A stretch of DNA of 16,824 nucleotides. Origin: a virus. The DNA is taken from UHGV virus genome UHGV-0124552; one strand, 5' to 3'. The translations under genes were made by a program, and so were the position numbers. The stretch's first letter is position 1. Every line of letters begins with the position of its first letter. The notes beneath the pieces are model-generated. The model ran no database searches. It was not told where the DNA came from and was given only the letters and a program-made list of their open reading frames with translations. Shown here one piece after another: positions 1 to 16,824 of the stretch.

Positions 1-42
1 GATGGTTGAGAGGGTTGCAGGGTAGTAGATAAGTTTTAGATA

Positions 43-68
43 ACAAAAAACCCATTTATGTAAATGGG
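43..68 (-). terminator. Rho-independent terminator-like hairpin in the left flank, outside the element
   Basis: Stem cccattt (51-57) / aaatggg (62-68) with a 4-nt loop, preceded on the + strand by acaaaaaa, so on the - strand the stem is followed by a TTTTTTGT run. Confidence 0.4.
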
Positions 69-147: not shown

Positions 148-170
148 CGCTGCCGCCACTTTGTCGCCAC
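148..170. repeat. attL: attL core: left copy of the 23-bp imperfect direct repeat CGCTGCCGCCACTTTGTCGCCAC
   Basis: Matches 16693-16715 (CGCTGCCGCCATTTTGTCGCCAT) at 21 of 23 positions. The integrase gene lies just inside this copy and ogr just inside the other. Confidence 0.6.
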
Positions 171-175
171 TTGTT

Positions 176-445
176 TTACCTTAGACGCCATGGGCCCCTA
201 TCTTCAATCTGTTCGACTAACCCCTCCTCTTCTAGTTCACGCAATAGTGCAACAACCCAATATTGTTGGTTCGAACTTGTGGCTTTCCGTTTTTCTCCCC
301 AATCGAGGCCGCTTAGACGAAATACCTCAGCTTGCTTAACGCCGTTGCCGTTTTTTTGGGCATCTGGGTGAGTTTTAAGTACGGATAAAGCCAATTCTTT
401 GGCTCTGTTGCGCAATTCCGCTCCCTGATGCTGAAACTTATTCAT
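176..445 (-). CDS. Hypothetical 89-aa protein between attL and int; possible small DNA-binding protein
   Basis: ATG at 445 preceded on the - strand by GGAG with an 8-nt spacer. Open frame of 89 codons. No family recognised with confidence. Confidence 0.5.
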   Translation of the reverse strand: MNKFQHQGAELRNRAKELALSVLKTHPDAQKNGNGVKQAEVFRLSGLDWGEKRKATSSNQQYWVVALLRELEEEGLVEQIEDRGPWRLR

Positions 446-503: not shown

Positions 504-1535
504 TCAAAAACTTGCTATTGATGTTGGTAGTGTTGCCAGCGGATTAAACCGTAATGCAGTTTCCAGGTGATCCGGTGCTAGATGTGCGTAACGCATAGTC
601 ATTTTTATGTCGTGATGTCCGAGGATTTTTTGCAAAGCAAGGATATTTCCACCCGACATCATAAAATGCGCCGCAAACGTATGGCGCAGAACGTGTGTCA
701 GTTGACCGCGAGGGAGCACGATAGACGTTTTTTCCATCACGGATAAAAATTGAAAATAGCAGTCTGTGAAGAAATTGAACCCATCGAGCGCCATGATCTC
801 TTCGTAAAGCTCTTTACTGATAGGGATGCTTCTGTTTTTCTTCCCCTTCGTTCTGACAAAGGTAATTCGGTATTTGGTCACCTGTGAGCGGGTAAGGTTT
901 ATTGCTTCTCGCCAGCGTGCGCCTGTGCTTAAGCATATCTTGACTACCAGTGCCAGAATTGGGTCCTGACGTTTGCAATCATCCAGCAGTTCAACAATCT
1001 GCTCATGGGTAAGCCATGCCATCTCTTTTTCTGCGATGGTGAATTTTCGCATGTTCTCCAGTGGGTTTGGATACGACCATTCGCCCAGGCGGGATAGTTC
1101 GCTAAAAACACTACTTAGATAGCTTTGCTCCAGGTTAATGGTGACCGGGCTGGCCCCTTTCTTCCATTTCTCGCTGAAGTAGATCTCACCTGTCAGTCGT
1201 TTATCTCGATAATGGGCAAACATTTTAGATGTGAGATCGGTTGCAAGGGGATTGCCCAGAGCGTCAACCATCAGCAGCAATTTGTCATAGACATGCTGCC
1301 CAGCAGTCAGAGATTTACCATGTAGTTTGAACCATAGCTCAACCACGTCTTTCAGGGTTCGACGATCTACTGATTCGCCCAGCCAGGGCTTTGCTTCGGT
1401 TTCTTCCATCGTGTGACGCTCAAAAGCCAGTGCTTCGCCTTTGGTGGCGAATTGTTTACGCACACGACGCCCACTACGTCCGGCGGGGTAACATTCGCAA
1501 AGCCATTTTCCTGTGGTGAGTTTTCGTACTGCCAT
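504..1535 (-). CDS. int: Tyrosine recombinase / phage integrase, P2/186 Int family
   Basis: N-terminus MAVRKL..GKWLCECYPAGRSGRRVRKQF closely resembles P2/186 Int (recalled from memory). C-terminal catalytic region LRHTFAAHF ... MRYAHL. ATG at 1535 has a GGAGGG RBS 8 nt upstream; the longer track ORF starting at 1613 is probably an over-extension. Confidence 0.9.
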   Translation of the reverse strand: MAVRKLTTGKWLCECYPAGRSGRRVRKQFATKGEALAFERHTMEETEAKPWLGESVDRRTLKDVVELWFKLHGKSLTAGQHVYDKLLLMVDALGNPLATDLTSKMFAHYRDKRLTGEIYFSEKWKKGASPVTINLEQSYLSSVFSELSRLGEWSYPNPLENMRKFTIAEKEMAWLTHEQIVELLDDCKRQDPILALVVKICLSTGARWREAINLTRSQVTKYRITFVRTKGKKNRSIPISKELYEEIMALDGFNFFTDCYFQFLSVMEKTSIVLPRGQLTHVLRHTFAAHFMMSGGNILALQKILGHHDIKMTMRYAHLAPDHLETALRFNPLATLPTSIASF

Positions 1536-1928: not shown

Positions 1929-2498
1929 TTACCTAACGTACTTAATTGTTAAACTTATAATTTTTCCAATTATTTCAACATCTTCTATCTTGCACTCGAA
2001 GGATCTGTTTCCACCTTCAACGAAGATTCTTCCACCGGGTAAACGAGTAATGTCGCGGATTGTTATTTCGCCATCAATACTTATTACCCATTTACCATCA
2101 CGTATATCATCAAATTCTTTATCACAAATAAATTCAGAATTGTTATCTGTGATGACAAAAGGTTTTTTAAACGTAGAGGGTAGAAATCCCTTATCAAAAA
2201 TATAAAAACCGTCTTCACGCAAGGCACCATCAGATAATACATATTTAGCAACTTCCATCGTATTTGTATTACCTGAAGTTTGCTTTGAACCATGTCCAGT
2301 TGTGAGCCAATTAAGCGAGGTGCCCGTTTCAAGGGCGCACTGGATTACCCATTCTGCTGGGAATGAGTCACGCATGTAGCGTGTAGCGAGTGTACTTTTA
2401 GAGATTCCTAAATGATCGCACAACGCCTGTCGAGTTTTGAATCCATAAGCTTCTACCATGCGCTCTATAGCGCCTCGTCCGCCTTTCTCCAAATTCAT
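1929..2498 (-). CDS. cI: Phage 186 CI-type immunity repressor (N-terminal HTH plus C-terminal oligomerisation domain)
   Basis: About 190 aa, with HTH-like segment TRQALCDHLGISKSTLATRYMRDS. Sits divergent to apl-cII as in phage 186. ATG at 2498 with GGAG 5 nt upstream; the track start at 2504 is GTG. Confidence 0.75.
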   Translation of the reverse strand: MNLEKGGRGAIERMVEAYGFKTRQALCDHLGISKSTLATRYMRDSFPAEWVIQCALETGTSLNWLTTGHGSKQTSGNTNTMEVAKYVLSDGALREDGFYIFDKGFLPSTFKKPFVITDNNSEFICDKEFDDIRDGKWVISIDGEITIRDITRLPGGRIFVEGGNRSFECKIEDVEIIGKIISLTIKYVR

Positions 2499-2877: not shown

Positions 2878-3387
2878 ATGTTTGATTACCAAGTTTCCAA
2901 ACATCCACATTTTGATGAAGCCTGTCGTGCATTTGCACTGCGCCACAATCTGGTGCAACTGGCAGAACGTGCAGGCATGAATGTGCAGATTCTGCGGAAC
3001 AAGCTGAACCCAGCTCAGCCTCATTTATTAACCGCACCAGAAATCTGGCTGCTTACCGATCTGACTGAAGATTCAACGCTGGTAGATGGTTTTCTGGCAC
3101 AGATTCACTGCCTGCCATGTGTACCGATTAATGAGGTTGCAAAAGAGAAACTGCCGCATTACGTCATGAGCGCAACTGCAGAGATCGGACGTGTTGCAGC
3201 AGGTGCGGTATCTGGTGATGTAAAAACTAGTGCCGGTCGTCGTGATGCTATCAGCAGCATTAACTCTGTAACACGACTGATGGCGCTGGCTGCTGTTTCA
3301 TTGCAGGCCCGTTTACAGGCTAATCCTGCGATGGCGAGTGCAGTTGATACCGTGACTGGCCTCGGTGCTTCATTCGGTTTGCTGTGA
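2878..3387 (+). CDS. cII: 186 CII-like lysogeny establishment regulator
   Basis: 169 aa from ATG 2878 (GAGG RBS 8 nt upstream); same size and position as 186 CII. The track start at 2872 is TTG. Confidence 0.6.
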
Positions 3388-3394
3388 GGTGCTT

Positions 3395-3595
3395 ATGCTG
3401 ACGAAAGAACCATCATTTGCATCGCTGCTGGTAAAACAAAGCCCGGCAATGCACTACGGTCACGGCTGGATCATGGGTGAGGATGGTAAACGCTGGCATC
3501 CGTGCCGTTCACAAGATGAATTGCTGGCAGAACTATCTACGAAAAAACGGGGGAACAAATGGCTATTGAAGGCGCTGCGGCGACTGTTCCATTAA
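3395..3595 (+). CDS. Small early-operon protein (66 aa), hypothetical; position equivalent to 186 fil / P2 orf78
   Basis: ATG at 3395 follows the cII stop with GAGGTG just upstream. The track ORF begins at GTG 3365, inside cII. Confidence 0.5.
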   Translation: MLTKEPSFASLLVKQSPAMHYGHGWIMGEDGKRWHPCRSQDELLAELSTKKRGNKWLLKALRRLFH

Positions 3596-3900
3596 GCCCC
3601 GGTGAACGCCTGAATGGACTTAATCACATAGCGGAATTAAGGGCAAAAGTTTTTGGCCTGAATATTGAGTCAGAGCTTGAGCGGTTTATTAAAGATATGC
3701 GTGATCCACGGGATATCAATAACGAACAAAATAAACGAGCACTGGCAGCCATATTCTTTATGGCAAAAATTCCGGCTGAACGTCATAGCATCAGCATCAA
3801 TGAGCTGACCACTGACGAAAAGCGGGAGTTGATTAAAGCAATGAATCATTTTCGTGCAGTGGTGAGCTTATTTCCCAGACGGCTAACCATGCCGAATTAA
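3559..3900 (+). CDS. Hypothetical early phage protein (113 aa)
   Basis: ATG at 3559 with GGGGG RBS 5 nt upstream. Overlaps the previous ORF by 37 nt in another frame. Confidence 0.5.
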   Translation: MAIEGAAATVPLSPGERLNGLNHIAELRAKVFGLNIESELERFIKDMRDPRDINNEQNKRALAAIFFMAKIPAERHSISINELTTDEKRELIKAMNHFRAVVSLFPRRLTMPN

Positions 3901-3967
3901 CCAACTAATGAAATTAATGGCGTAAACCCGCCGAGCATCCCTTTATCTAAATTCAGGAGAATTGATT

Positions 3968-4201
3968 ATGCGTAATATTGAGATCCTCACGACTAAAACC
4001 GGATCGGATGATGCAGGGCTTAATATTTTACTGACAGTGGCTCGTCTGGAAGAACGCCGGGCAAGGGCTGAAGCAATGGCAGCTCGCCTTGATAGCCTGG
4101 CGTGTCATATCTCATCCCGTCAGCTAAACCACGTGGAAGCAGCAGAACTACTGCGTGTAACTGCTGAAGCAATCCAGAACGAAGCGCAGGAGATCCACTA
4201 A
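3968..4201 (+). CDS. Hypothetical early phage protein (77 aa)
   Basis: AGGAGA RBS (3954-3959) 8 nt before ATG 3968. Its stop overlaps the start of the next gene (TAATG). Confidence 0.5.
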   Translation: MRNIEILTTKTGSDDAGLNILLTVARLEERRARAEAMAARLDSLACHISSRQLNHVEAAELLRVTAEAIQNEAQEIH

Positions 4202-4428
4202 TGGCTGATGCAATGGATCTCGTACAGCAGCGCGTTGAAGAAGAACGCCAGCGCCATATTCGTGCTGCCCGTGCCAAAACACCGGGCGTGTCTCGCGTGC
4301 TTTGTATTGAATGTGAAGCGCCAATTCCGCCAGCACGACGCCGCGCCATTCCGGGAGTGCAGCTTTGCATTACCTGCCAGGAAATCGCAGAGCTGAAAGG
4401 CAAACATTACAACGGAGGTGCTGTATGA
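4201..4428 (+). CDS. TraR/DksA-family C4 zinc-finger protein
   Basis: CIECEAPIP ... CITCQ gives a Cys-x2-Cys ... Cys-x2-Cys arrangement. AGGAG RBS 8 nt upstream. Typical small gene of P2-like early operons. Confidence 0.7.
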   Translation: MADAMDLVQQRVEEERQRHIRAARAKTPGVSRVLCIECEAPIPPARRRAIPGVQLCITCQEIAELKGKHYNGGAV

Positions 4429-5282
4429 GCACCATCCTGAAATGGGCGGGAAATAAAACCGCCATTATGTCCGAACTGAAAAAACACCTTCCTGCTGGCC
4501 CGCGACTGGTTGAACCTTTCGCGGGTTCCTGTGCTGTGATGATGGAGACGGATTACCCCAGCTATCTGGTTGCGGATATTAATCCTGATTTAATCAACCT
4601 CTATAAAAAGGTTGCCGCTGATTGTGAATCGTTTATATCTCGCGCCAGAGTTTTATTTGAGATCGCAAACAGGGAGGTGGTTTATTACAACATAAGGCAG
4701 GAGTTTAATTACTCCACTGAAATTACTGATTTCATGAAAGCGGTATATTTCCTGTATCTCAATCGTCACGGTTACCGTGGTTTATGTCGCTATAACAAGA
4801 GCGGGCATTTCAACATTCCCTACGGTAATTATAAAAATCCGTATTTCCCTGAAAAAGAAATTCGCGCATTTGCAGAAAAGGCCCAGCGAGCAACGTTTAT
4901 CTGCGCCAGCTTTGATGAAACGCTGGCGATGTTGAAGGCGGGGGATGTGGTGTATTGCGATCCGCCGTATGACGGTACGTTTTCCGGCTATCACACTGAC
5001 GGCTTCACTGAAGATGACCAGTATCACCTGGCATCTGTTCTTGAACATCGGTCATCAGAAGGACATCCGGTCATTGTTTCTAACAGTGACACATCCCTGA
5101 TCCGTTCGCTGTATCGCAATTTTACTCACCACTACATCAAGGCAAAACGCAGCATCGGTGTGGCAGCTGGCGAGGGTAAATCAGCAACAGAAATCATTGC
5201 TGTTTCCGGGCCGCGCTGCTGGGTGGGATTTGATTATTCGCGTGGCGTGGATAGTTCTGCCGTGTACGGAGTACGTGCATGA
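4425..5282 (+). CDS. dam: DNA N6-adenine methyltransferase (Dam-like)
   Basis: N-terminal LKWAGNK and catalytic CDPPYDG (DPPY motif). GGAGG RBS 7 nt before ATG 4425. Stop overlaps the gpA start (ATGA). Confidence 0.85.
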
Positions 5283-7693
5283 GTCATGCCGATATGAACA
5301 ACTGCTGCGGCTTTAACGAGGCTGCCGCAGCATTCTCATGGAACAGCCCGAAAAAGGCCATTAACCCTTATCTGGACCCGGCGGAAGTTGCGCCGGTTTC
5401 TACGCTTTCAAACCTGATCACTCTGTACGCTGCCGATAACGAGCAGGAACAGTTGCGCCGCGAGGCACTGAGTGATCAGGTCTGGGAGCGTTATTTCTTT
5501 AATGAATCACGTGATCCTGTCCAGCGCGAAATGGAGCAGGATAAGCTCATTAGCCGGGCAAAGCTGGCGCATGAGCAGCAGCGTTTTAATTCAGACATGG
5601 TCATTCTGGCGGACGTCAACGCCCAGCCTTCCCATATCAGCAAGCCGCTGATGCAACGTATTGAATACTTCAGCAGCCTGGGCAGGCCAAAGGCTTATTC
5701 CCGCTATTTACGTGAGACGATTAAGCCATGTCTGGAACGACTGGAGCATGTACGCGACAGTCAGCTATCTGCATCTTTTCGCTTTATGGCAAGCCATGAA
5801 GGGCTGGATGGCCTGCTGATCCTGCCTGAAATGAGTCAGGATCAGGTGAAACGCCTGTCCACCCTGGTAGCTGCGCATATGAGTATGTGCCTTGATGCAG
5901 CTTGTGGTGATTTGTATGCCACCGATGACGTTAAGCCAGAAGAAATCCGCAAGACATGGGAAAAGGTGGCAGCGGAAACCCTGCGTCTGGATGTCATCCC
6001 ACCTGCGTTTGAGCAACTCCGTCGGAAAAGAAACCGCCGTAAACCCGTGCCCTATGAACTCATTCCGGGTTCGCTGGCGCGTATGTTGTGCGCCGACTGG
6101 TGGTATCGGAAATTATGGAAGATGCGTTGCGAATGGCGGGAAGAGCAGTTGCGCGCTGTTTGCCTGGTCAGCAAAAAAGCATCTCCTTATGTCAGCTATG
6201 AAGCCGTGATGCATAAACGTGAGCAGCGCCGTAAGTCGCTGGAGTTTTTCCGTTCTCATGAACTGGTGAACGAAGACGGCGACACGCTGGACATGGAGGA
6301 TGTGGTAAACGCCAGCAGCAGCAACCCTGCGCATCGCCGCAATGAGATGATGGCCTGTGTTAAAGGTCTGGAGCTTATCGCGGAAATGCGCGGTGACTGC
6401 GCCGTTTTCTACACTATCACCTGTCCGTCGCGTTTCCATTCCACGCTAAATAACGGCAGACCAAACCCGACCTGGACAAACGCGACGGTAAGACAAAGCA
6501 GCGATTATCTGGTCGGCATGTTTGCTGCATTTCGTAAGGCGATGCACAAAGCCGGGTTGCGCTGGTATGGCGTGCGGGTGGCTGAGCCGCATCATGATGG
6601 CACAGTTCACTGGCACCTGTTGTGTTTCATGCGCAAAAAAGACCGCCGTGCCATCACTGCATTACTGCGTAAGTTTGCCATCCGTGAAGACCGCGAGGAG
6701 CTGGGCAATAACACTGGGCCGCGCTTTAAGTCTGAGTTGATTAACCCGCGCAAAGGAACGCCGACAAGCTACATCGCGAAATATATCAGTAAGAACATTG
6801 ACGGTCGTGGTCTGGCTGGCGAGATCAGCAAGGAAACGGGTAAATCTCTGCGTGATAACGCTGAATACGTGAATGCCTGGGCGTCTCTGCATCGTGTTCA
6901 GCAATTCCGCTTCTTTGGTATTCCGGGGCGTCAGGCTTACCGTGAACTTCGCTTGCTGGCTGGTCAGGCGGCAAGGCAACAGGGTGACAAAAAAGCAGGT
7001 GCGCCGGTACTGGATAACCCGCGTCTTGATGCCATTCTGGCTGCTGCTGATGCTGGTTGTTTTGCCACCTACATCATGAAGCAGGGCGGCGTACTGGTTC
7101 CCCGTAAATATCACCTCATCAGAACCGCTTATGAAATCAACGAAGAGCCGACCGCCTATGGCGATCACGGCATTCGTATTTATGGCATCTGGTCACCCAT
7201 TGCAGAGGGCAAGATCTGCACTCATGCAGTGAAGTGGAAAATGGTTCGTAAAGCCGTTGACGTTCAGGAGGCGGCAGCCGACCAGGGCGCTTGCGCCCCT
7301 TGGACTCGTGGCAATAACTGTCCCCTTGCTGAAAATTTGTACCAACAAGGGAAAGACAAATCAGCTGATGGGGATACCAGAACGGATATCACCCGTATGG
7401 ATGACAAGGAGTTGCACGATTACCTGCACAGTATGAACAAAAAAGAACGCCGGGAACTGGCTGCAAGGTTACGCCTGGTGAAACCGAAACGGCGTAGAGA
7501 CTACAAACAGCGAATTACAGACCATCAACGACAGCAGCTCGTCTATGAACTGAAGTCCAGAGGATTTGACGGCAGCGAGAAAGAGGTCGATTTACTCCTT
7601 CGCGGCGGCAGCATTCCGTCAGGAGCAGGCCTGCGTATTTTCTATCGGAACCAGCGTTTGCAGGAAGATGATAAGTGGCGGAACCTGTATTAA
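5279..7693 (+). CDS. A: P2 gpA-family rolling-circle replication initiation endonuclease
   Basis: 804 aa, with HUH-type motif VHWHLLCF and active-site tyrosine motif YIAKYISKN. Last gene of the early operon. Confidence 0.85.
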
Positions 7694-7785
7694 TTACGCG
7701 GATTAACAATTCGTGCTCTTAATAATACCAGGCATATCAGGCTGATGAACGTAAAAAAACGTTTTACATCAGTAAGATTATTATA

Positions 7786-7805
7786 TACTGTAAATATAAA
7801 CAGTG
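7786..7805 (+). promoter_or_regulatory. LexA (SOS) box overlapping a candidate promoter for the downstream Tum/DinI-like genes
   Basis: TACTGTAAATATAAACAGTG fits the CTGT-N8-ACAG LexA consensus (TACTGTATATATATACAGTA) very closely. Possible -35 TTTACA (7763-7768) and -10 TATACT (7784-7789). Confidence 0.7.
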
Positions 7806-7846
7806 GTTATGTATACAGTATTGCTTGTGGTGTCATAGGAGGAAAG

Positions 7847-8035
7847 ATGCAGGACTATTTTTTGGAGTCTTTGAAGCTCCAACGCATTGATTTTTTTCTT
7901 AAGCTTGTAGCGGCTAGTGAGTGTAGTGATGAAGAGAAGGGGCTGGCCCTGCAGTGGGTTTCTGAATTGACAGATGAACTCATGGCAAAAATCAGAAGCC
8001 ACGAATACAACCGCTCAATGGATGTCATCAGCTGA
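7847..8035 (+). CDS. Small SOS-controlled protein (62 aa), possibly the N-terminal antirepressor part of a split 186 Tum-like protein
   Basis: GGAGG RBS 5-6 nt before ATG 7847, directly downstream of the LexA box. Followed within 10 nt by a DinI-like ORF. Confidence 0.45.
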   Translation: MQDYFLESLKLQRIDFFLKLVAASECSDEEKGLALQWVSELTDELMAKIRSHEYNRSMDVIS

Positions 8036-8045
8036 GGGGACTTTT

Positions 8046-8279
8046 ATGCGCATTGAAATAATGATCGATAAAGAGCAGAAGATTAGCCAGTCTATCCTAG
8101 ACGCCCTTGAATCAGAGCTTTACCGCAATCTGCGCCCCCTGTATCCCAAAACGGTAATTCGTATCCGTAAAGGTAGCTCTAACGGTGTGGAACTGACCGG
8201 ACTGCAACTGGACGAAGAAAGGAAACAAGTGATGAAAATTATGCAGAAGGTGTGGGAAGACGACAGCTGGCTGCATTAA
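8046..8279 (+). CDS. DinI/Tum/MsgA-family protein (DinI-like)
   Basis: MRIEIMIDK ... ILDALESEL ... KVWEDDSW aligns by eye to E. coli DinI (MRIEVTIAK ... IDALAGEL ... ETWESADDW). GAGGGG RBS 6 nt upstream. Confidence 0.7.
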   Translation: MRIEIMIDKEQKISQSILDALESELYRNLRPLYPKTVIRIRKGSSNGVELTGLQLDEERKQVMKIMQKVWEDDSWLH

Positions 8280-8663
8280 GAAACGTTGCTGGCGTCTGAA
8301 CTTGCTTCTGGCGTCAGCAAGGTTGAACAACGAGCTATGCGAGGCGTTAGCCATCTGATCAAAAGACATCAAATATCATATTGTATATCGTGGTCAAACG
8401 CTGGAAACAATCATTCCCGATCAGAGGGGCTTCTTTCAATGTCCAAAAGAGTGAGATAGAGGATACAGGATGGGAAGAGCTTTTGATTAATTATCGTCCA
8501 AGTTTTTCAAAAGCTTCTTATCTGGCGGTCGATACATGATTTACTGTTGGATATGGTATTTAAAATTAATCTTTACACTGTGGTATATGCAGAATAGGAT
8601 ATTATCAATACAATCAAACTGTTTTCATACGGTTATTAATATTGCAATGTTATAGGTAATGTC

Positions 8664-9782
8664 ATGTATCTTTTCAAGTATTACCGTCCGGACTTCTTCT
8701 TCGAGAAAGCTATTCGTTATAATGAATTATATTTTTCCGCTCCTGCGCAATTGAATGATCCCAATGATCTCAATATAGATTATCGCTTCGATAATAAATT
8801 GAAATTATGGGATATTTTATTGCGTTCTCCTTGCGATAAATCCTATAAAAATTTGAGTCACATATTGGATTTGAGTAATTTGAAAATACATAAGGGATTG
8901 AATCGTATTTTTAGAGGAAAAAAAATAAAAAGTAGCATTGAGTCATTAGATAGCCTGTTCGACTCACACGTTGATGAGATACGTAAGATCATAGATGATG
9001 GTTTACTACCTATCAATGTGATTAATTCTGCTATTTATGGAAATATTCCTGAACCACGCCAATATTTGGTTTCACTTTGCGAGAACAGTATCAAAGAAAG
9101 GTTGTATAGGAAAATAGTTCCTGCAGTATTCAGTGTGTCATTTTCAGCTAATGCGTTAGATCGTATGATGTGGGCGCATTATGCTGCTGGCTTTAGTGGT
9201 TGTGTTGTGATTTATGAAACGCAGGATTTTAATATTGATGGTATACCCTATACTGGAATGAAGCTAAGAGAAAATTTATTTTCATCAGATAAATTTAATT
9301 TTCCAGTTAAGCCAATAAAATATAGTAATCAGGCTAAAGAGGTTTCACTTCTAGACCCAAGCGCAAATGTTGCAGAGTTATTTTTAACTAAAAATAGATT
9401 TTGGAGATATGAAGCTGAATATCGAATGTTTATTCCGGAGGCAAATGCAGGAATAGGGAGTGAGCGGCATGTTCAAAGACGCGTAAATCGAAATATTGGA
9501 CATATTTTTCATCATGATGCTAATGTTGTTAAAGGGATCATTTTTGGTCCTAGAATGTGTGAAATGAAAAAAGAAAGCATATGGAATTGTATCAAGTCAA
9601 ATATGGAGAATTCAAATTCAACAATATGTTATTTTTTTGACTCTGAGTTATCAGCATCAGGAAAGATTACTATTTCAAAAGGGCAACGAGCGGAAAAAAT
9701 GAAAAATTTCACTTTGTTCAGGAACAAGTTAAGTCAGACGGAAATGGCTAAAGTTTTGAAGGAAATTGGCATTACGAACTAA
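8664..9782 (+). CDS. DUF2971-like protein (372 aa) of unknown function; candidate single-gene defence/abortive-infection protein
   Basis: N-terminal YRPDFFFEKAIRYNELYFSAPAQLNDPND, central VFSVSFSANALDRMMWAHYAAGFSGCVVIY and C-terminal KNRFWRYEAEYRMF match the motif pattern I associate with DUF2971. Very AT-rich, preceded by about 380 bp of AT-rich non-coding DNA and followed by a terminator. Confidence 0.6.
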   Translation: MYLFKYYRPDFFFEKAIRYNELYFSAPAQLNDPNDLNIDYRFDNKLKLWDILLRSPCDKSYKNLSHILDLSNLKIHKGLNRIFRGKKIKSSIESLDSLFDSHVDEIRKIIDDGLLPINVINSAIYGNIPEPRQYLVSLCENSIKERLYRKIVPAVFSVSFSANALDRMMWAHYAAGFSGCVVIYETQDFNIDGIPYTGMKLRENLFSSDKFNFPVKPIKYSNQAKEVSLLDPSANVAELFLTKNRFWRYEAEYRMFIPEANAGIGSERHVQRRVNRNIGHIFHHDANVVKGIIFGPRMCEMKKESIWNCIKSNMENSNSTICYFFDSELSASGKITISKGQRAEKMKNFTLFRNKLSQTEMAKVLKEIGITN

Positions 9783-9848
9783 CCTAACAACAGTGCATGC
9801 CTATGCTGCCTGAATTTGCATGACCGTTTGAGGATCGTTTTTGCTAAG

Positions 9849-9875
9849 GCCCGCCAGAACTGGCGGGCTTTTGCG
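9849..9875 (+). terminator. Rho-independent terminator after the DUF2971-like gene
   Basis: GCCCGCCA (9849-9856), loop gaac, TGGCGGGC (9861-9868), then TTTTGCG. Confidence 0.65.
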
Positions 9876-9917
9876 TGGATCAGGCACCTGCATGAAAACC
9901 ACTACACAAAGCGGGCA

Positions 9918-9936
9918 GGCGTGGCGGGGATACGAG
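9918..9936 (+). other. cos: cos-like sequence (possible cohesive-end site or remnant of a P2/186-type phage)
   Basis: GGCGTGGCGGGGATACGAG matches the remembered 186 cos GGCGTGGCGGGGAAAGCAT in the first 13 nt (15 of 19 overall). It lies in a short GC-rich island between two AT-rich insertions, in the same orientation relative to Q as P2 cos. Confidence 0.4.
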
Positions 9937-10007
9937 CGCGCGCAGCGGGTGGAAACTCAGATTTGAATGTTGTATAAAAGATGGGATCATTCTGAGGAAA
10001 AGTGGAT

Positions 10008-10913
10008 ATGAAAAAGAAAACTATTCCGGAGTTGCAGAAGCAAAATCTGGCAAATTTAATTAAAAGTCGGCTTTTTCAACAGAAAAATAAAAATAAAGTT
10101 ACTGTTTTCCTTTGCGGGGGCGATTTGAATGATCCGTTTTTTTGTAGAAATAAAGTTAAAAGAGTGTTGGAAACACATCCCAAAATAGAAATATTCTATC
10201 CTGAGGAGTTGTTTGATGAGCTTTTGTATGGACAAGGTCAGCATAGTCTTTTAAGTTTGGAGAATATTTTAGCTGATTCAGTCGATGTTATTATTATTAT
10301 TCCTGAAAGCCCAGGGTCTTTCGCTGAATTGGGCGCATTTTCAAATAATGAAAAACTGTGCAAAAAAATGATATGTCTTCAGGATGACAAATTCAAACTT
10401 AAAAAAAGCTTTCTTAATTATGGGCCTATAAAACTGCTTCGGCGTGCTAATAGCGGTGCAGTATTGCGAGGAGATTTGTCGACTCTTGAAAGCTTGAGTA
10501 CAGGTAAAGCTTTTTATAATAGAATTATAAAAAGTATTAATGACATCAAAAAAAATAACCCAGTTAATCACTCAATAGATAATATTCTTCACGCTCGGCG
10601 TTTTATACTGCCATGTATATATTTGATGGATGGTATAGATAATATACTTCTATATGAGCTATTACATTTGGTGACTAAGAAAGATGCTATTCTTTGTGAA
10701 ATTATCGTTAAGTCTGTTATTTCAAGCTTGATTAAAGAGTCAATAATTAGGCGTTCAGTTCAAGGATACCATATTACAGAAATTGGTATGCAATACGTTC
10801 TTGAGCATTTTGATCGAAAGGCTTTGGACAATCTACGACTGGATATGATGAACTTCGAAAATCGTGGTAAAACAATACTCCACTATGATAGGATGCGTTT
10901 TGCGCACCCTTAG
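10008..10913 (+). CDS. Retron effector: nucleoside 2-deoxyribosyltransferase-like (NDT-like) protein, as in the Ec86 (Retron-Eco1) family
   Basis: VFLCGG ... VIIIIPESPGSFAELGAFS resembles the NDT-like fold motif with a catalytic Glu. Its stop codon lies inside the retron a1 repeat, immediately upstream of msr-msd and the RT. GAGGA RBS 9 nt before ATG 10008; the track start at 10002 is GTG. Confidence 0.65.
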   Translation: MKKKTIPELQKQNLANLIKSRLFQQKNKNKVTVFLCGGDLNDPFFCRNKVKRVLETHPKIEIFYPEELFDELLYGQGQHSLLSLENILADSVDVIIIIPESPGSFAELGAFSNNEKLCKKMICLQDDKFKLKKSFLNYGPIKLLRRANSGAVLRGDLSTLESLSTGKAFYNRIIKSINDIKKNNPVNHSIDNILHARRFILPCIYLMDGIDNILLYELLHLVTKKDAILCEIIVKSVISSLIKESIIRRSVQGYHITEIGMQYVLEHFDRKALDNLRLDMMNFENRGKTILHYDRMRFAHP

Positions 10914-11061
10914 CGAGTGGCTTCTCCGGAAGTTCACTGGACAGTGTTTCGCTGTCCTACATACAATCTGAAGTTTTACCAGTTCCCTCATTGAAAGGAG
11001 AACATCTCCCGATGTTCTCCTTTCACTTCGGAATCTGATTTTTATGACGTAAGGGTGCGCT
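10901..11061 (+). ncRNA. msr-msd: Retron msr-msd non-coding RNA (template/primer for msDNA), Ec86-like
   Basis: Inverted repeats a1 TGCGCACCCTTA (10901-10912) and a2 TAAGGGTGCGC (11050-11060). The 5' 17 nt TGCGCACCCTTAGCGAG and the 3' TGACGTAAGGGTGCGC are identical to the Ec86 ncRNA as I remember it. msr hairpin GGACAG-tgtttcg-CTGTCC (10939-10957). Long msd hairpin GAAAGGAGAACATC-tccc-GATGTTCTCCTTTC (10993-11024). Confidence 0.75.
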
Positions 11062-11062
11062 C

Positions 11063-12037
11063 ATGACTTCCGCAACACCATCTCAGGTTTTTCGCTTACG
11101 CAATCTTGGATTGCCTGTTATGTCCTCTTTAGAGGATATGTCTAGAGAAATGCGTTTATCAGTAGACATACTCCGGTTGTACATTTATCGTGCTGACAAA
11201 TACTATAAGGTTTATTCGTTGCCAAAAAGAGATGGCAAGAGATCCCGCATCATTTCACAGCCATCACGTGAGCTGAAGGCATTGCAAGCTTGGGTGTTAA
11301 GAAACATCCTTGATAAGTTACATTCATCCCCATTTTCCAAAGGCTTTGAAAAAGGGCAATCAATATTAAATAATGCCAGCCCACATGTAGGAGCTAACTA
11401 TGTATTAAATATTGATTTAGAAGATTGTTTTAATACTATTCTGATAGAGAAAATCTATACTGTTTTTCATTCTCTGGGGTATAACTCTACTATTTCTAAT
11501 GCTTTAGCAAGATTGTGTTCATTTAATGGTTCGCTACCTCAAGGTGCACCATCTTCTCCAAAGATTGCGAATCTTGTTTTAACTAAATTAGATTATAGAA
11601 TACATGGATATGCAGGTAGTAAGGGGATCGTATTTACTCGATATGCCGATGATTTGACTTTATCTGCTCAATCTTTAAAAAAAATACTTAAAGCTAAGTC
11701 ATTTGTATGCTCTATAATACCAAGTGAATCTTTGAAGGTTAATTATAATAAAGTTGCGATTCATGGCCCCAAAGCAAGGAAGGAGGTTACTGGGCTCGTT
11801 TTATCTATTGATAATGTTGGAGTTGGCAGAATACGTTATCGCGAAATTAGAAGTAAGATCCATTATCTGGCGGTAAAAAGAAATTCTGATTTCGAACATG
11901 TTAAAGGACTTATTGCGTTTGTTAAAAGTGTAGACAAGAAAAACTATAGAAAATTGATGACTTTCTCAAATAAAATGTCTGAAGCATATGGGGTTGATCT
12001 AAGTGTTCTTTTTCCTAAAAACAAAAAGGCCATTTAA
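11063..12037 (+). CDS. ret: Retron reverse transcriptase (Ec86 / Retron-Eco1-like)
   Basis: N-terminus FRLRNLGLPVM and QPSRELKALQAWVLRNILDKL closely resemble Ec86 RT (from memory). Also QGAPSSPKIANL, the catalytic YADD (RYADDLTLSA) and the retron-specific VTG motif (KEVTGLVL). Start codon abuts the a2 repeat. Confidence 0.85.
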   Translation: MTSATPSQVFRLRNLGLPVMSSLEDMSREMRLSVDILRLYIYRADKYYKVYSLPKRDGKRSRIISQPSRELKALQAWVLRNILDKLHSSPFSKGFEKGQSILNNASPHVGANYVLNIDLEDCFNTILIEKIYTVFHSLGYNSTISNALARLCSFNGSLPQGAPSSPKIANLVLTKLDYRIHGYAGSKGIVFTRYADDLTLSAQSLKKILKAKSFVCSIIPSESLKVNYNKVAIHGPKARKEVTGLVLSIDNVGVGRIRYREIRSKIHYLAVKRNSDFEHVKGLIAFVKSVDKKNYRKLMTFSNKMSEAYGVDLSVLFPKNKKAI

Positions 12038-12050
12038 TGGCCTTTTTGTT
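12023..12050. terminator. Bidirectional rho-independent terminator shared by the convergent ret and Q genes
   Basis: AAAAAGGCCAT-tta-ATGGCCTTTTT palindrome with A/T runs on both sides. The ret stop codon lies in the loop and the Q stop immediately beyond. Confidence 0.55.
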
Positions 12051-12052: not shown

Positions 12053-13081
12053 TTAGGTAATTGAATAACTCACGAAATTAATAACTTCTTCATTTATCCA
12101 TTCGTTCAGCTCTTCTAGTCTTTTTTGTAAAGGGATGAGTTCATTCCTCACAAAAACATTAGCAGCTTTCTCTACATCCCCAAACCCCCCAATATTATTC
12201 GGCATGATCCCCATCATCTGCGGCGGCACGCGGTGCGCAGCCATCATGTCATCCCGGCTCACGTTCTTGATATTCAGAAACTCATCCTTCGCCGCGACTT
12301 CTGACAATGGGATGATCTGAAGTCCGTCCTTTTTGCCGTTAGGCGAGTACATAAACAGATTGCGGAAGTTACCTGGTCCTTTGGCGCTTTTCATCGTATT
12401 GCGGAGGTTGTTCACATCCTCCTGGTTCTGCGCAGCATCGGTCATGTACATGATGAAGCCTGCATGACTGCCGTTAATGTAATACTTGCGGCGGAACAGC
12501 GTGGCGGACTCGTTGAGCAGAGCTGACGGAATGGCAGAAAGATAACCGGGCAGGCCGTAGATCTCCTGGTTAATGTCCGGTTCCATCAGATGAAAAATGC
12601 TGCCTTTCGTGAACTGATACGGCTGGGTTGTCATACCGTATTGCACAAACCAGTAGGTATCCAGGTCTAACCCGCGTCGGGTGTATTTTGCCAGTGCAGG
12701 CTCAAGGGCGATAACTTCACCGAAGCGGTTCGTGCGTTTCTCCAGGTAGGCGTTACCAAAAACCAGATAGTCCTGCACAAAACGCGAAAAAGCCTGCTGG
12801 CTGAGTAGCGGGTGAGGGATGTAGGTGCTGGTCAGAATGTTGCATTTCACCGCAATTGGTGAACTGTGATGCACGGCAGCGCGGAAGGTGCGCGCCAGTC
12901 CGTCAAAGCTGACAGGAGGCTCATACCAGCGATCTGTCTGTACGCATTCCACATAGTCCAGCAGTTCGCGGCGGTCAAGTACAGGAACGGGATCACCGAA
13001 GCTGAATGCTTCGGCTGAAGTCTGGCTTTTATGCTTGAGCTGATTCGTCGCCGCAGCGCGGTTTTTCTTAATCTTTCCCAT
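12053..13081 (-). CDS. Q: Portal protein (P2 gpQ-like)
   Basis: About 342 aa, size and sequence style of P2 gpQ. Convergent with ret and divergent from O, as in P2. ATG at 13081 overlaps the P stop (ATGA). The last ~25 codons (12053-12130) are AT-rich, unlike the rest of the gene. Confidence 0.8.
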   Translation of the reverse strand: MGKIKKNRAAATNQLKHKSQTSAEAFSFGDPVPVLDRRELLDYVECVQTDRWYEPPVSFDGLARTFRAAVHHSSPIAVKCNILTSTYIPHPLLSQQAFSRFVQDYLVFGNAYLEKRTNRFGEVIALEPALAKYTRRGLDLDTYWFVQYGMTTQPYQFTKGSIFHLMEPDINQEIYGLPGYLSAIPSALLNESATLFRRKYYINGSHAGFIMYMTDAAQNQEDVNNLRNTMKSAKGPGNFRNLFMYSPNGKKDGLQIIPLSEVAAKDEFLNIKNVSRDDMMAAHRVPPQMMGIMPNNIGGFGDVEKAANVFVRNELIPLQKRLEELNEWINEEVINFVSYSIT

Positions 13082-14847
13082 CAAAAAATCTCCACAATAT
13101 TGCTGGTATTGGCGGATTCGCCCTGCAGCGGTTCGTTAAACAATGCGTGCATCGTTGCCCAGGCCAGATCGGCGTGGCTGGCTTCTTCGCTGCGGCTGGC
13201 TTCATAGGTCGGGCGGTTGCCGCTGGCGGTGGTGGCGCGACGGATTGCCATGAATGACTGCGCAATGTCGCTGTGCCCGGCGTCAAACTCCAGACGGCGG
13301 TGGCTGATAATGTCGTAGGCCTTGAGTACCAGAGCGTTTTTAACGTTGGGGTTGTAGACAAACTCCCGGACGGCTGGAAAAAACGCTTTCACGTTCTCAT
13401 AAACTCCGTGACCGACACCCGTCGAGTCGATGCCGATATATGTCACGTTGTACTGTTCGGTCAGTTTTTTGATGGCGTCCGCCTGGGCGCGGAAGTCCAT
13501 CCCGCGCCACTGGTGGCGCTCAAGAATACGGAACTTACCGCCCGGCACGGCTGGCGGTGCCACCACCACGCATCCGGCGCTGTCGCCGTTCTGCGTACCT
13601 TTTGCCGGGTCATAACCGATCCACACTTCGCGCCACCCAAACGGGCGAAGGGCCAGTGCATGAAAGTCGGTCCAGACTTCCCAGCTGTCCACCATGCACG
13701 CCTGCAGCTCGCTGAGCGGAAACACGGACGCGAGATCGTCCACAAACTCGCACATCAGCAGGTTCTGGTATTCGTCCGGGCTGTACTCCATGCGTAGTTG
13801 GTCGAGGTCGAACAGGTTACAGCCGCCGCGCACCGCATCTTCCACGGTGACTATCTGGCGGTATTGCCCGTCTGCGCACAGCAGGCCGGGGGCCAGATTG
13901 CTGTGGGACAGGTCGATGTCCACCTTGTCGGCTTTGTTGCGTCCACGGTTGAACAGCGCACCGGACCAGAACGGATAAGCACTGTGGGTCAGGCTGGATG
14001 GCGTGGAAAAATAGGTTTGTCGCCATTTTTTGTGAATAGCCATACCGGAAGCCACTTTGCGCAGCTCCTGGAATTTCGGTATCCAGAAATATTCATCCAG
14101 ATACAGGTTGCCGTGGTAACTCTGGGCAGTGCGGGCATTGGTGCCGAGGAAATACAGTGTGGCCCCGTTGGGAAGCACCATCGGATCGCCTTTCAGCTCC
14201 ACTTCCACTTCTTTGGCGAAGTCGATGATGTACTGCTTAAAGACGTGCGCCTGTGCCTTACTGGCAGAAAGGAAAATCTGGTTACGTCCGGTTAGCAGGG
14301 CGTCAATCAGGGCTTCACGGGCAAAATAGAAGGTCGCGCCGATCTGGCGTGACTTCAGCAGGTTGCGGATGCGGTTGGTTTTTCCGGCTTCCCACCAGTG
14401 ACGCTGGTAGTTGAACATGGAGGAATGGAAGATTTCTTCCAGCTTCTCAATCTGTTCATCGGTGAAAACATTCTTTTCAGGCTGACGGCGCGGGCCTTTG
14501 TTGCGGTTGGCGACGTTAGGGTTTAAATCGGCTTCGTTGCCGCCATTGTTAAACTTGCCGATCCGCGCGTGGCGCTCCGACTGGCGCGCCAGCAGATCAA
14601 TTTCTTTGAAATCTTTCCCTTCTTTGTGCTCCTTCATAATGAGCTGGCAGTAACGTGCGGCGGTGGTGAGCTGCATCTGATCCAGCGGCCCATAGTCACC
14701 CCACTTGTCGCGTTTTTTCCAGCTGTGAACGGTTGCAACTTTCTCGCCCAGCATTTCAGCAATGCGGGCTACGCGGTATCCCTGAAAGTACAGCAGCATG
14801 GCCTGCCGACGGGGATCGAGATCTGCGGGTGTCAGTGTGGTGTTCAT
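13081..14847 (-). CDS. P: Terminase large (ATPase) subunit (P2 gpP-like)
   Basis: 588 aa (P2 gpP is about 590). N-terminus LDPRRQAMLLYFQGYRVARIAEMLG resembles gpP. Upstream of Q on the same strand. Confidence 0.85.
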   Translation of the reverse strand: MNTTLTPADLDPRRQAMLLYFQGYRVARIAEMLGEKVATVHSWKKRDKWGDYGPLDQMQLTTAARYCQLIMKEHKEGKDFKEIDLLARQSERHARIGKFNNGGNEADLNPNVANRNKGPRRQPEKNVFTDEQIEKLEEIFHSSMFNYQRHWWEAGKTNRIRNLLKSRQIGATFYFAREALIDALLTGRNQIFLSASKAQAHVFKQYIIDFAKEVEVELKGDPMVLPNGATLYFLGTNARTAQSYHGNLYLDEYFWIPKFQELRKVASGMAIHKKWRQTYFSTPSSLTHSAYPFWSGALFNRGRNKADKVDIDLSHSNLAPGLLCADGQYRQIVTVEDAVRGGCNLFDLDQLRMEYSPDEYQNLLMCEFVDDLASVFPLSELQACMVDSWEVWTDFHALALRPFGWREVWIGYDPAKGTQNGDSAGCVVVAPPAVPGGKFRILERHQWRGMDFRAQADAIKKLTEQYNVTYIGIDSTGVGHGVYENVKAFFPAVREFVYNPNVKNALVLKAYDIISHRRLEFDAGHSDIAQSFMAIRRATTASGNRPTYEASRSEEASHADLAWATMHALFNEPLQGESANTSNIVEIF

Positions 14848-14893: not shown

Positions 14894-14911
14894 TGTGTGG
14901 TTGTCGGTACA
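14894..14911 (+). promoter_or_regulatory. TGT-N12-ACA dyad typical of Ogr-dependent P2-type late promoters, upstream of O
   Basis: TGT (14894-14896), 12 nt, ACA (14909-14911), in the P/O divergent intergenic region about 80-95 bp upstream of the O start codon. Confidence 0.45.
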
Positions 14912-14989: not shown

Positions 14990-15883
14990 ATGACAGTGAA
15001 AGCAAAGCGTTTTCGCATCGGGGTGGAAGGTGCCACCACCGACGGACGCGAAATCCAGCGTGAATGGCTGGAACAGATGGCAGCCAGCTACAACCCGGCG
15101 GTGTATACCGCGCTGATTAACCTTGAGCACATCAAGTCTTATCTGCCGGACAGCACCTTTAACCGCTACGGCAAGGTGACGGCGCTGTTTGCTGAAGAAA
15201 TCACGGAAGGTCCGCTGGCAGGCAAGATGGCGCTGTATGCCGACGTTGAGCCAACAGAGTCCCTGGTGGAGCTGGTGAAAAAAGGCCAGAAATTATTCAC
15301 CTCTATGGAAGTCAGCCCAAAGTTTGCTGATACGGGCAAAGCCTACCTGGTCGGGCTGGCTGCCACTGATGACCCTGCCAGTCTGGGCACTGAAATGCTG
15401 ACATTCAGCGCCAGTGCAGCCCATAACCCGCTGGCAAACCGCAAGCAGAATCCCGCCAATCTCTTTACCGCCGCAGAGGAAACGGTGATCGAACTGGAAG
15501 AAATCCAGGAGGACAAGCCGTCCCTGTTTGCCCGCGTCACGGCGCTGTTCACCAAAAAAGAGCAGTCCGACGATGCCCGGTTCTCTGATGTGCATAAGGC
15601 CGTGGAGCTGGTCGCCACTGAGCAGCAGAACCTGAGCGCACGGACCGAAAAATCCCTGTCTGAGCAGGAAGAACGTCTGTCTGAGCTGGAGACTGCCCTG
15701 CAGGCACAGCAGACCGCCTTTAACGAACTGGTGAATAAGCTGAGTCATGAAGACAGCCGCCAGGACTACGCGAAGCTGACCATCAATGGTGAGGTGCTCT
15801 ATGAAGTGGACCTTATCAACATGGTGGAAATTGTGGACGGTGTGGACCTGATGGAAGCGCACCGCAACGCCCTCGGCCTCTGA
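14990..15883 (+). CDS. O: Capsid scaffolding protein (P2 gpO-like)
   Basis: FRIGVEGATTDGREI ... INLEH ... TSMEVSPKFADTGKAYLVGLAATDDPASLGTE ... ASDDARFSDVH aligns by eye along the length of remembered P2 gpO. GGAG RBS 8 nt upstream. Confidence 0.85.
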   Translation: MTVKAKRFRIGVEGATTDGREIQREWLEQMAASYNPAVYTALINLEHIKSYLPDSTFNRYGKVTALFAEEITEGPLAGKMALYADVEPTESLVELVKKGQKLFTSMEVSPKFADTGKAYLVGLAATDDPASLGTEMLTFSASAAHNPLANRKQNPANLFTAAEETVIELEEIQEDKPSLFARVTALFTKKEQSDDARFSDVHKAVELVATEQQNLSARTEKSLSEQEERLSELETALQAQQTAFNELVNKLSHEDSRQDYAKLTINGEVLYEVDLINMVEIVDGVDLMEAHRNALGL

Positions 15884-15937: not shown

Positions 15938-16080
15938 ATGAGCGATAAGCAGACTGAAAAGACCATTCAACTGGATACCCCCATCAAGCGCGGTAAAACA
16001 GAAATCACCGAAATTGTGCTGCGTAAACCGCAGTCCGGTGCGCTGCGCGGTACACGCCTGCAGGCCATTATGGATACCTG
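15938..16080 (+). pseudogene. Truncated tail assembly chaperone gpE-like N-terminal fragment (E')
   Basis: First ~47 aa (TIQLDTPIKRGKTEITEIVLRKPQSGALRGTRLQAIMD) fit the gpE-type tail assembly chaperone pattern. Beyond about 16080 the frame reads into unrelated residues before stopping at 16246. Confidence 0.5.
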
Positions 16081-16383
16081 GTGGGTACGGATGAAAACGT
16101 GCTGGTACTTAATCGCACTTATGCCAACCGGAGCAACGCTGAACGGGCAGCGAAAATGCAGTGGGAACGCCTGCAACGCGGCGTTGCGTCATTCTCGCTA
16201 CAACTGGCGGAAGGGCGGGCAGATCTCTACACAGAAATGCCTGTGAAGGTCAGTGGCTTTAAACAGCCGATAGATGATGCGGAATGGACCATTACGACTC
16301 TGACGCATACCGTCAGCCCGGATAACGGTTTTACGACCAGTCTGGAGCTTGAAGTGAGGATTGATGATTTCGAAATGGAATGA
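16081..16383 (+). pseudogene. C-terminal fragment of tail protein gpD (D')
   Basis: ERAAKMQWERLQRG ... RADLYTEMPVKVSGFK ... GFTTSLELEV resembles the C-terminus of P2 gpD (from memory). It lacks the ~290 N-terminal residues and is out of frame with the upstream E' fragment. Confidence 0.55.
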
Positions 16384-16692: not shown

Positions 16693-16715
16693 CGCTGCCG
16701 CCATTTTGTCGCCAT
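16693..16715. repeat. attR: attR core: right copy of the 23-bp imperfect direct repeat CGCTGCCGCCATTTTGTCGCCAT
   Basis: 21 of 23 identical to 148-170. Begins immediately after the ogr stop codon. Confidence 0.6.
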
Positions 16716-16778
16716 CGTTAAAGAATAGTGCTTCTAACATCATGATTTTAAACAGCTTAAATTTCAGACAACAAAAAA

Positions 16779-16821: not shown

Positions 16822-16824
16822 AAA

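Follow-up and report, generated by a model that had tools for sequence, protein, structure and literature searches.

Defective P2 prophages and their defence genes

In phages of the P2 family, a hotspot for defence genes lies between gpA and gpQ, beside cos, and it has been shown to harbour variable systems including retrons (Rousset et al. 2022, PMC9122126). Defective P2 prophages carrying defence genes have also been published (NAR 2026, gkag898, PMC13586616). In Escherichia coli B, the remnant Rybb*B has been reported with the retron Ec86 at rybB (PMC3032704), a gene encoding a small RNA (sRNA). At the functional level, Sp13 of the O157 Sakai strain was found to be excised and, upon treatment with mitomycin C, to be replicated about 30-fold, with packaging at a low level (PMC2669165). 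The 16,824-nt virus genome UHGV-0124552 of UHGV, whose full length is called here the window, is compared in this work with these systems. With high confidence, the window corresponds to a defective prophage of the P2 family that carries a lysogeny switch of the phage 186 type and lies inside the 3' end of E. coli rybB. The element belongs to an already documented, ordinary kind.

Borders, gene order and nearest relatives

The limits of the element are set by a 26-nt direct repeat. The attL core (30-55, plus strand) duplicates the 3' end of rybB, is repeated at 16758-16783 and equals the annotated attL of Klebsiella phage 4LV2017. At the opposite end, the attR arm (16696-16783, plus strand) combines an Int arm-type-like site (16696-16706) with the attR core (16758-16783), and the distance between both cores gives an element of 16,728 bp. 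The 3' part of the host sRNA gene rybB follows on the minus strand (16770-16824; Rfam RF00110, 62.6 bits, E 1e-10), its 5' end lying beyond the end of the window.

Save for two gaps, phage 4LV2017, KP12 and a prophage of E. coli KFu015 are collinear with the window, the nucleotide identity being 95-98%. The latter, an intact prophage of 33.7 kb, has 98% identity, an identical pair of cargoes and the same insertion site between rcdA and ybjL, a site that is also common to BL21, PSJ-16, MB7671 and ST95-32. KFu015, ST95-32 and 4LV2017 (Peduoviridae, Elveevirus) have the gene order of the window at the above level of identity, and ST95-32 has in addition its left end and its DUF2971 gene. What sets these intact relatives apart is a stretch of 17 kb, comprising head, lysis and tail genes, which they keep and the window has lost. 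Regarding the proteins left in the window, a comparison of 22 KFu015 proteins by tblastn showed them to be collinear and 90-100% identical, the retained genes being full length and 95-100% identical; deviations are confined to fil, which is present as another allele, and to the 12 final residues of Int. Identity to KFu015 reaches 100% for the retron reverse transcriptase (RT) and its effector, 99.9% for A, 99.8% for P and 99.5% for the DUF2971 protein.

From left to right, the element consists of attL, orf89, int, an open reading frame (ORF) of 63 amino acids and cI, followed by the rightward genes from apl through A. Beyond A come a LexA box, orf62, a DinI-like gene, the DUF2971 gene, a GC-rich island of 160 nt and an AT-rich retron. 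The right part is made up of Q and P on the minus strand, and of an O'-'FII fusion, an E fragment, the end of D and ogr on the plus strand, before attR and rybB. The early layout of P2 and 186, with int-cI leftward, apl-cII-...-A rightward and a gpA rolling-circle initiator, is recognised from Pfam, PHROGs and collinearity. An earlier interpretation made from the letters alone (hereafter, the sequence-only reading) had stated that the segment 4425-12037 keeps an integrase, a repressor, a LexA-controlled module, Dam and gpA. All of them are indeed present in the window, but int and cI are located outside that segment.

Two deletions in the late genes

The two gaps correspond to deletions whose junctions can be placed to the base. 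The first one created an in-frame O'-'FII fusion of 297 amino acids (14990-15883, plus strand) in which codons 1-260 of O precede the last ~40 codons of FII, as manifested by its Pfam domains (Phage_GPO at residues 6-259, Phage_tube at residues 259-296); 94% of O is present. Its junction, at 15766-15769, joins O codon ~260 to FII codon ~130 through the microhomology CTAC, with a loss of 12,514 bp relative to KFu015. The second deletion left an E fragment joined to the end of D (15938-16383, plus strand), that is, E codons 1-46 followed by the last 102 codons of D; at its junction (16075-16076, microhomology TA) E codon 46 passes into D codon 265, and 4,640 bp are lost relative to KFu015. Taking the annotation of the intact KFu015 sibling as the reference for the identity of the lost genes, the deletions removed N (capsid), M (the endonuclease subunit of the terminase), L, X, the holin, lysozyme and spanins, the head completion functions, every gene for baseplate, fibre and sheath, the gene of the tape measure, the greater part of FII, and E', T, U and the bulk of D. 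The head, lysis and tail set (Q P O N M L X Y K ... FI FII E T U D) is thus incomplete, which makes the element a defective derivative unable to give a viable phage. As the sequence comparison shows, the ancestor was a phage of about 33.5 kb of the type that persists intact in KFu015, in which two illegitimate deletions occurred at microhomologies of 4 and 2 nt.

Several late genes escaped these deletions, and they lie directly to the right of position 12037, where the sequence-only reading ended its segment. The portal gene Q (12053-13081, minus strand; Pfam Phage_portal) aligns over 342 of 342 residues with its KFu015 counterpart at 97% identity, and P (13081-14847, minus strand), encoding the large, ATPase subunit of the terminase, matches Pfam Terminase_6N, Terminase_6C and Terminase_5. 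Beside attR, ogr (16474-16692, plus strand) encodes a zinc finger late activator of the Ogr/B type (NCBIfam PRK09678, 4e-28) identical at 100% to that of KFu015. The claim that the structural genes are lacking is consequently correct for the capsid, lysis and nearly all tail functions, but not for Q and P, which are whole, for O, or for the remaining fragments of E and D. Between P and O, a TGT-N12-ACA dyad (14894-14911) is a candidate element of an Ogr/B-dependent late promoter, at a position that in phage 186, between p12 and pV, is taken by the B-binding site; across the window, the count of TGT-N12-ACA is not above chance, and only the position of this copy is suggestive. The O'-'FII protein itself is a predicted chimera of scaffold/protease and tail tube placed behind this candidate late promoter.

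A protein identical to O'-'FII occurs in 43 index blocks and in at least 24 contigs, and the 24 contigs that were read have the same neighbouring genes. Two of these loci, retrieved for comparison, match the window at 99.99% and 100% identity (0-1 nt differences). This source lineage was reached only through the search with the fusion protein: neither the GTDB species representatives nor the JGI metagenomes contain the exact strings of the junctions, and no complete RefSeq genome of E. coli has both junctions.

The cos site and the two cargo slots

A cos region of the P2/186 type is located at 9790-9955 (plus strand), between the A side and Q, with GGCGTGGCGGGGATACGAG at 9918-9936 as the equivalent of the 19-nt cohesive end. 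This block of 150-160 nt is the sole conserved stretch in a region that varies among relatives. With the joined ends of phage 186 an alignment of about 160 nt is obtained, which includes the shared GGCGTGGCGGGG as well as AAAG(C/T)GGGCAGGCGTGGCGGGGA across the 186 cleavage site; relative to the intact KFu015 prophage, the block is identical at 161 of 161 positions. The cohesive end shares 15 of 19 bases with that of phage 186; in agreement with these 4 differences, the P2/186 19-mer had no match in the window or in the intact relatives when as many as 3 mismatches were allowed. The cos-like site of the sequence-only reading is thereby borne out, by the alignment with 186 and by the conservation among relatives. 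The possibility that the 149-nt block at 9795-9943 is the msr-msd of a retron was considered and rejected, given that the block precedes unrelated cargo in relatives and aligns with the 186 cos.

The two anti-phage cargo blocks that had been noticed from the letters are equally found, in the form of a DUF2971/PDC-S31 gene (8664-9782) and of a retron effector with its RT (10008-12037). Their GC content is about 35%, versus about 50-55% in the backbone. Because cos lies between them, the left slot with the DUF2971 gene and the right slot with the retron are separate. Both slots are swapped independently among relatives: ST95-32 has the same DUF2971 gene on the left and a DUF262 gene on the right, and other combinations of left and right cargo are displayed by 4LV2017, KP12, PSJ-16, MB7671 and BL21. 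In phage 186, only orf97 is found to the left of cos, in contrast to the window, where cargo is present on both sides. The cargo region is the cos-proximal P2 hotspot of Rousset et al. 2022 (PMC9122126). AT-rich variable systems and swaps between near-identical backbones are features that it shares with this hotspot and with the defective P2 elements described in PMC13586616; it is therefore the same in kind as those reports, with the difference that two sub-slots and their independent exchange are resolved here. Both cargo blocks would be expressed from the prophage and might protect the lysogen.

The margins of the slots show features of their own. A 385-bp AT-rich stretch between the DinI-like and DUF2971 genes (8280-8663) is found only in phages with that cargo and has no ORF of more than 50 amino acids in common with relatives; it presumably holds the promoter or regulatory region of the left cargo. 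At the other side, the last ~25 codons of Q (12053-12125) are AT-rich and covary with the cargo to the right of cos; among the relatives, the identical version occurs in KFu015 alone, whose retron is also the same. This covariation implies that the boundaries of cargo exchange extend into the portal coding sequence.

The retron to the right of cos

By family profiles and alignment, the block to the right of cos is classed as a Retron-Eco1 (Ec86)-like type II-A retron of the St85 family. Its effector (10008-10913, plus strand) is predicted to be an NDT-like N-glycosidase with a C-terminal DNA-binding domain (PADLOC NDT_II-A, 3e-97; NCBIfam STM3845_fam, 186 bits, with the cut-off at 100). Over its full length, it shares 50% identity with the effector of Ec86 in BL21. 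The RT (11063-12037, plus strand; PADLOC RT_II-A, 5e-123; NCBIfam retron_St85_RT, 272 bits, with the cut-off at 235) has YADD in its translation and is 59% identical to the Ec86 RT. The gene of the msr-msd non-coding RNA is assigned to 10902-11060 (plus strand), where the 150-nt gap between effector and RT has the inverted repeats a1 (GCGCACCCTTA) and a2 (TAAGGGTGCGC), of 11 nt and 100% complementary. The predicted fold of this RNA reaches -73.7 kcal/mol (z = -9.4 relative to shuffled sequences), and the gene aligns with the BL21 Ec86 msr-msd, the ends TGCGCACCCTTAGCGAG and CTGACGTAAGGGTGCGC being identical. An Rfam scan of the window gave no retron RNA match, and the msr-msd assignment relies on the structure together with the Ec86 alignment.

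For Retron-Eco1, the complex of RT and multicopy single-stranded DNA (msDNA) is described to keep a filament of NAD(P)+-hydrolysing N-glycosidase inactive until the msDNA is altered by a phage factor (PMC12673091, with reference to Wang 2022, Carabias 2024 and Wang 2024). By analogy with Ec86, the RT of the window would copy msd into msDNA, and the RT-msDNA complex would restrain the effector until a phage factor changed the msDNA.

The closest described locus as regards the retron is Rybb*B of E. coli B (REL606/BL21; PMC3032704), which in BL21(DE3) occupies the same rcdA/ybjL rybB site. Identity to the window is 96% at the nucleotide level in int-cII, and 86.8% over the block that starts at the 3' end of the effector, includes the retron, Q and P, and reaches O, with the same slot and the same order of effector, msr-msd, RT and then Q. 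Rybb*B is also defective by internal deletions, but with the reverse pattern: it has lost the genes from cII to A and keeps many tail genes. Its retron allele differs from that of the window, and another small gene takes the place of the DUF2971 gene to the left of cos. Between the convergent RT and Q genes of the window, a perfect hairpin, AAAAAGGCCATTTAATGGCCTTTTT, is present at 12020-12050 and is likely a bidirectional terminator. Sub-threshold Rfam matches to SraG and DapZ at the same positions are weak and probably reflect the hairpin itself.

The DUF2971 gene to the left of cos

The left cargo (8664-9782, plus strand) encodes a DUF2971/PDC-S31 protein with a predicted DarT-like ADP-ribosyltransferase fold. 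It matches the PADLOC candidate family PDC-S31 (1e-23) and has 58 homologues, mostly enterobacterial, the majority of which carry precomputed PF11185. DUF2971 has been described as a family of ADP-ribosyltransferases related to DarT and AbiGi, with H-Y-ExE motifs (PMC12522546). In the protein of the window these catalytic motifs are found within the modelled fold: H172, Y173 and E250-x-E252 are invariant among homologues, and the AlphaFold2 model has a predicted local distance difference test (pLDDT) score of 93. It has also been demonstrated that Aristaios, a distant lactococcal DUF2971 protein, is an abortive-infection system (PMC11381338), and the left cargo may act in a similar way. On the basis of motifs and model, it is a plausible single-gene defence candidate of the ADP-ribosyltransferase type.

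Lysogeny switch, replication and SOS control

The early genes follow phage 186, with which the element has in common a 186-type CI, apl, cII and fil. The CI repressor (1929-2498, minus strand; Pfam Phage_CI_repr, 3e-33, and Phage_CI_C, 1e-28) is full length and 97% identical to that of KFu015, with a Peptidase_S24 score under the cut-off. On the plus strand, the Apl/Cox-like excisionase-repressor (2624-2845; phrog_575, 6e-31; 100% identical to KFu015) is followed by the CII regulator of lysogeny establishment (2878-3387; Pfam Phage_CP76, 3e-42; 98.8% identical) and by a group of Pfam-assigned genes (3365-4428) comprising fil, DUF5347, DUF2732 and a TraR/DksA zinc finger, all of them full length with respect to KFu015 except fil. 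The fil gene (3365-3595) is represented by an allele of 76 amino acids in the window versus 98 in KFu015, and the nucleotide identity to relatives shifts within it at a mosaic boundary (3559-3561). An orphan N6-adenine methyltransferase of the Dam type (4425-5282, plus strand; Pfam MethyltransfD12, 1e-76; PADLOC oMTase, 3e-111) is a difference from phage 186, as is the integration site, which is ileY in 186 and rybB here. The gpA rolling-circle replication initiator (5279-7693, plus strand; Pfam Phage_GPA, 1e-127) is expected to contain the replication origin inside its gene, since the origin of phage 186 is annotated within A.

A predicted LexA box, TACTGTAAATATAAACAGTG, is located at 7786-7805 (plus strand) and overlaps a TATACT hexamer resembling a -10 element; its CTGT-N8-ACAG core (7788-7803) is the sole perfect match in the window. 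Phage 186 has p95 and a LexA site at the equivalent position between A and cos. The first gene of the putative SOS operon, orf62 (7847-8035, plus strand; 62 amino acids), belongs to a family of unknown function (phrog_698, 6e-38) and gave no alignment with the N-terminus of 186 Tum. The second one encodes a DinI-like protein (8046-8279, plus strand; Pfam DinI, 3e-22) that matches positions 71-148 of the 151 positions of phrog_189 and is 41% identical to residues 71-145 of Tum, in the C-terminal half. In phage 186, Tum is one protein with an N-terminal part and a DinI-like part, whereas the window has only the DinI-like half, with orf62 as a separate gene. The LexA-controlled antirepressor-like module proposed by the sequence-only reading therefore stands as regards the LexA core and the gene resembling DinI and the C-terminus of Tum, but not as regards the antirepressor, of which nothing beyond the DinI half is recognisable. 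Given that CI is of the 186 type and scores under the cut-off for S24 autocleavage, SOS control likely acts through a LexA-regulated factor encoded in this operon. As in phage 186, the SOS response could act through the LexA operon to derepress, excise and replicate the element, which once induced would be unable by itself to build particles or to lyse the cell.

The integration end of the element

Next to attL, two tandem Int arm-type-like sites, TGCCGCCACTT and TGTCGCCACTT, are located at 151-172 (plus strand). They follow the pattern YRYCGCCAYTY, a relaxed form of the consensus annotated for phage 186, which has 4 matches in the window versus 0.33 expected; three of the four fall on the att arms, with both arms represented. 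The tyrosine integrase (504-1535, minus strand; 343 amino acids; Pfam Int_N and Phage_integrase) is a variant of that of KFu015 in its C-terminal tail, 338 of 350 residues being aligned at 99% identity.

Between attL and the 3' end of int, the window has a 350-bp segment (174-523) that is absent from 4LV2017, KP12 and KFu015. This segment contains orf89 (176-445, minus strand), a small accessory gene of 89 amino acids with no family match in Pfam, PADLOC, NCBIfam or PHROGs, and it alters the last ~12 residues of Int. At least 209 complete genomes of E. coli have it, many of them with 100% identity, and it is also present in the intact ST95-32 prophage, whose integrase has the same length of 343 amino acids with the same orf89 segment downstream. 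The presence of the same tail variant in many genomes and in an intact prophage indicates that it is probably functional. BL21 has a different ORF of 110 amino acids at the same spot, and the position of orf89, equivalent to that of orf69 in phage 186, looks like a third small variable slot.

Recurrent breakpoints among remnants

The deletion junctions were also mapped in eight other remnants, with coordinates referring to the reverse-complemented KFu015 locus and with a survey query that favours remnants keeping the 3' end of O. Identical breakpoints, to the base or within 1-4 nt, recur among apparently independent remnants in which the pairing of left and right ends differs. Within O, breakpoint O17325 is shared by BL21 and GPT21-003, O17382/3 by the window and MB7671, and O17404 by PSJ-16 and isolate 44; FII 29893/4 is common to the window and ECCWS199; on the right, D34394 is found in MB7671 and ECCWS199, and D34842 in the window and PSJ-16. 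The junction microhomologies are mostly TA, TAC, CTAC or TACC, and the three O breakpoints lie at the feet of alternative stems that two ACCGCC repeats can form with GGCGGT.

In the flank from D' to ogr, PSJ-16 is 100% identical to intact KFu015 over 2,160 nt, as opposed to 9 differences in 750 positions for the window, which counts against a simple common descent of the D end shared by both remnants. Sampling bias does not account for the exact coincidence of breakpoints, and hairpin-stimulated slippage or cleavage would be the most economical idea for their cause. A Chi-like sequence, CCTGGTGG, at the recurrent D breakpoint was rejected as a RecBCD stop, since in its orientation it would protect the deleted and not the retained side. 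Base-level mapping places the breakpoint of E1433, initially taken as sharing the FII position, 35 nt off.

Decay, defence island or helper dependence

Several points weigh against the interpretation of the element as an SOS-inducible prophage remnant furnished with an Ec86-like retron and a second defence gene. The N-terminal half of Tum is absent, and orf62 is dissimilar to it. The left cargo scores 21.7 bits for Pfam DUF2971, with a gathering cut-off of 22, and PDC-S31 is a candidate defence family only. Dcm acts through a CCWGG site of Ec86 as a trigger. The msr-msd of the window has no such site, of which Ec86 has one, and GATC is also absent. Because the msd lacks CCWGG, the trigger of this retron may differ from that of Ec86, and in the absence of GATC the msr-msd would not be a substrate of the element's own Dam. 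Finally, retention by selection is not separable from the position and recency of the deletions when the available copies are near-identical. The proposal that the prophage is decaying into a chromosomal defence island consequently holds for the decay, the element being the intact KFu015 prophage minus two deletions, but an island is not separable from a recent neutral deletion.

A domesticated defence island, in which the host keeps the remnant for the retron, the DUF2971 gene and the homoimmunity conferred by CI, and in which the deletion of the late genes was selected, is the alternative that survives best, although it is considered rather unlikely. It would fit with cargo proteins 99.5-100% identical to those of the intact sibling, and with other remnants at the same site that keep int to A, the cos-proximal cargo, Q, P and ogr in the absence of the O-to-D genes. 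BL21 retains Ec86 despite its deletion from cII to A, and defective P2 elements carry defence genes near-identical to those of intact phages (PMC13586616). However, the non-defence genes fil, dam, A, P and Q are equally intact, and copies that are 0-1 nt apart have had no time for differential decay. The O-FII-E-D query matched 1,207 of 5,426 complete genomes, with the 3' end of D beside O' or the FII-E segment in only 7 records (6 distinct junction types), and the search route leading to the other remnants was biased to the same architecture.

It is less probable still, and indeed doubtful, that the element behaves as a helper-dependent, satellite-like entity that, after SOS induction or helper infection, is excised, replicated through A and packaged through cos by a P2-like phage, either co-resident or superinfecting, whose terminase has the same specificity. 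The att cores, the arm-type-like sites, int, apl, A, a cos identical at 161 of 161 positions, ogr and the late-promoter dyad are all present as in the sibling, and the virion genes have been lost while integrase, replication and a packaging site compatible with a helper remain, as in a satellite; yet the portal and the large terminase subunit are still encoded, which is not the case in typical satellites. Dimer packaging could be envisaged, since 2 x 16,728 = 33,456 bp is near the length of one helper genome. This idea draws on P4, whose multimers fill heads of P2 size. Sp13, a defective P2-like prophage devoid of most morphogenetic genes that keeps its early functions, represents the described precedent (PMC2669165); its induction has been put down to a P4 epsilon-like gene that Sp13 carries. 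Against helper dependence, every copy found has the same chromosomal neighbours, and the absence of the junctions from GTDB and JGI, together with the lack of a RefSeq genome with both, conforms to a pattern of vertical, clonal inheritance. Moreover, no helper-exploitation genes were found among the named genes and the other scanned ORFs of at least 62 amino acids, only ogr being common with P4 delta; genes for capsid size or helper derepression of the kind found in P4 or in phage-inducible chromosomal islands are missing. Two deletions apart, the element matches an intact phage at 98% identity; it does not constitute a distinct satellite lineage but merely a deleted phage.

A more general proposal, namely that half-genome derivatives of P2 arise recurrently by deletion at preferred sites associated with hairpins, persist as SOS-inducible, self-replicating carriers of defence genes provided with cos, and are packaged by intact P2-like phages as dimers close to one genome in length, is regarded as quite improbable; if true, elements of the structure int-cI-apl-A-SOS operon-cargo-cos-cargo-Q-P-O'...'D-ogr would be phage-derived satellites in the making. 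Lastly, practically no credence is left for a merely apparent loss, in which the window ends too early or the junctions are assembly collapses: although Q, P and O start right past position 12037, as in the normal P2 gene order, it is refuted by the presence of attR, ogr and rybB within the window and by base-exact junctions, which make the losses real and not an effect of the window edge, and by the recurrence of the fusion ORF with the same neighbours in at least 24 contigs of independent assemblies, which discards an assembly artefact.

Biological meaning

The interpretation favoured here, a defective P2-family prophage with a 186-type switch, leaves the current understanding of these elements unchanged. 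The element is worth mainly as a clean example, mapped to the base, in which the lethal late genes have been lost and immunity, replication, cos and two exchangeable slots have been kept. The left slot offers a DarT-like, single-gene DUF2971 candidate within a context rich in validated systems, and a natural Ec86-like allele devoid of the Dcm site could help to probe the triggering of type II-A retrons. Should a large sample confirm that breakpoints recur, this would inform on how prophages become inactivated.

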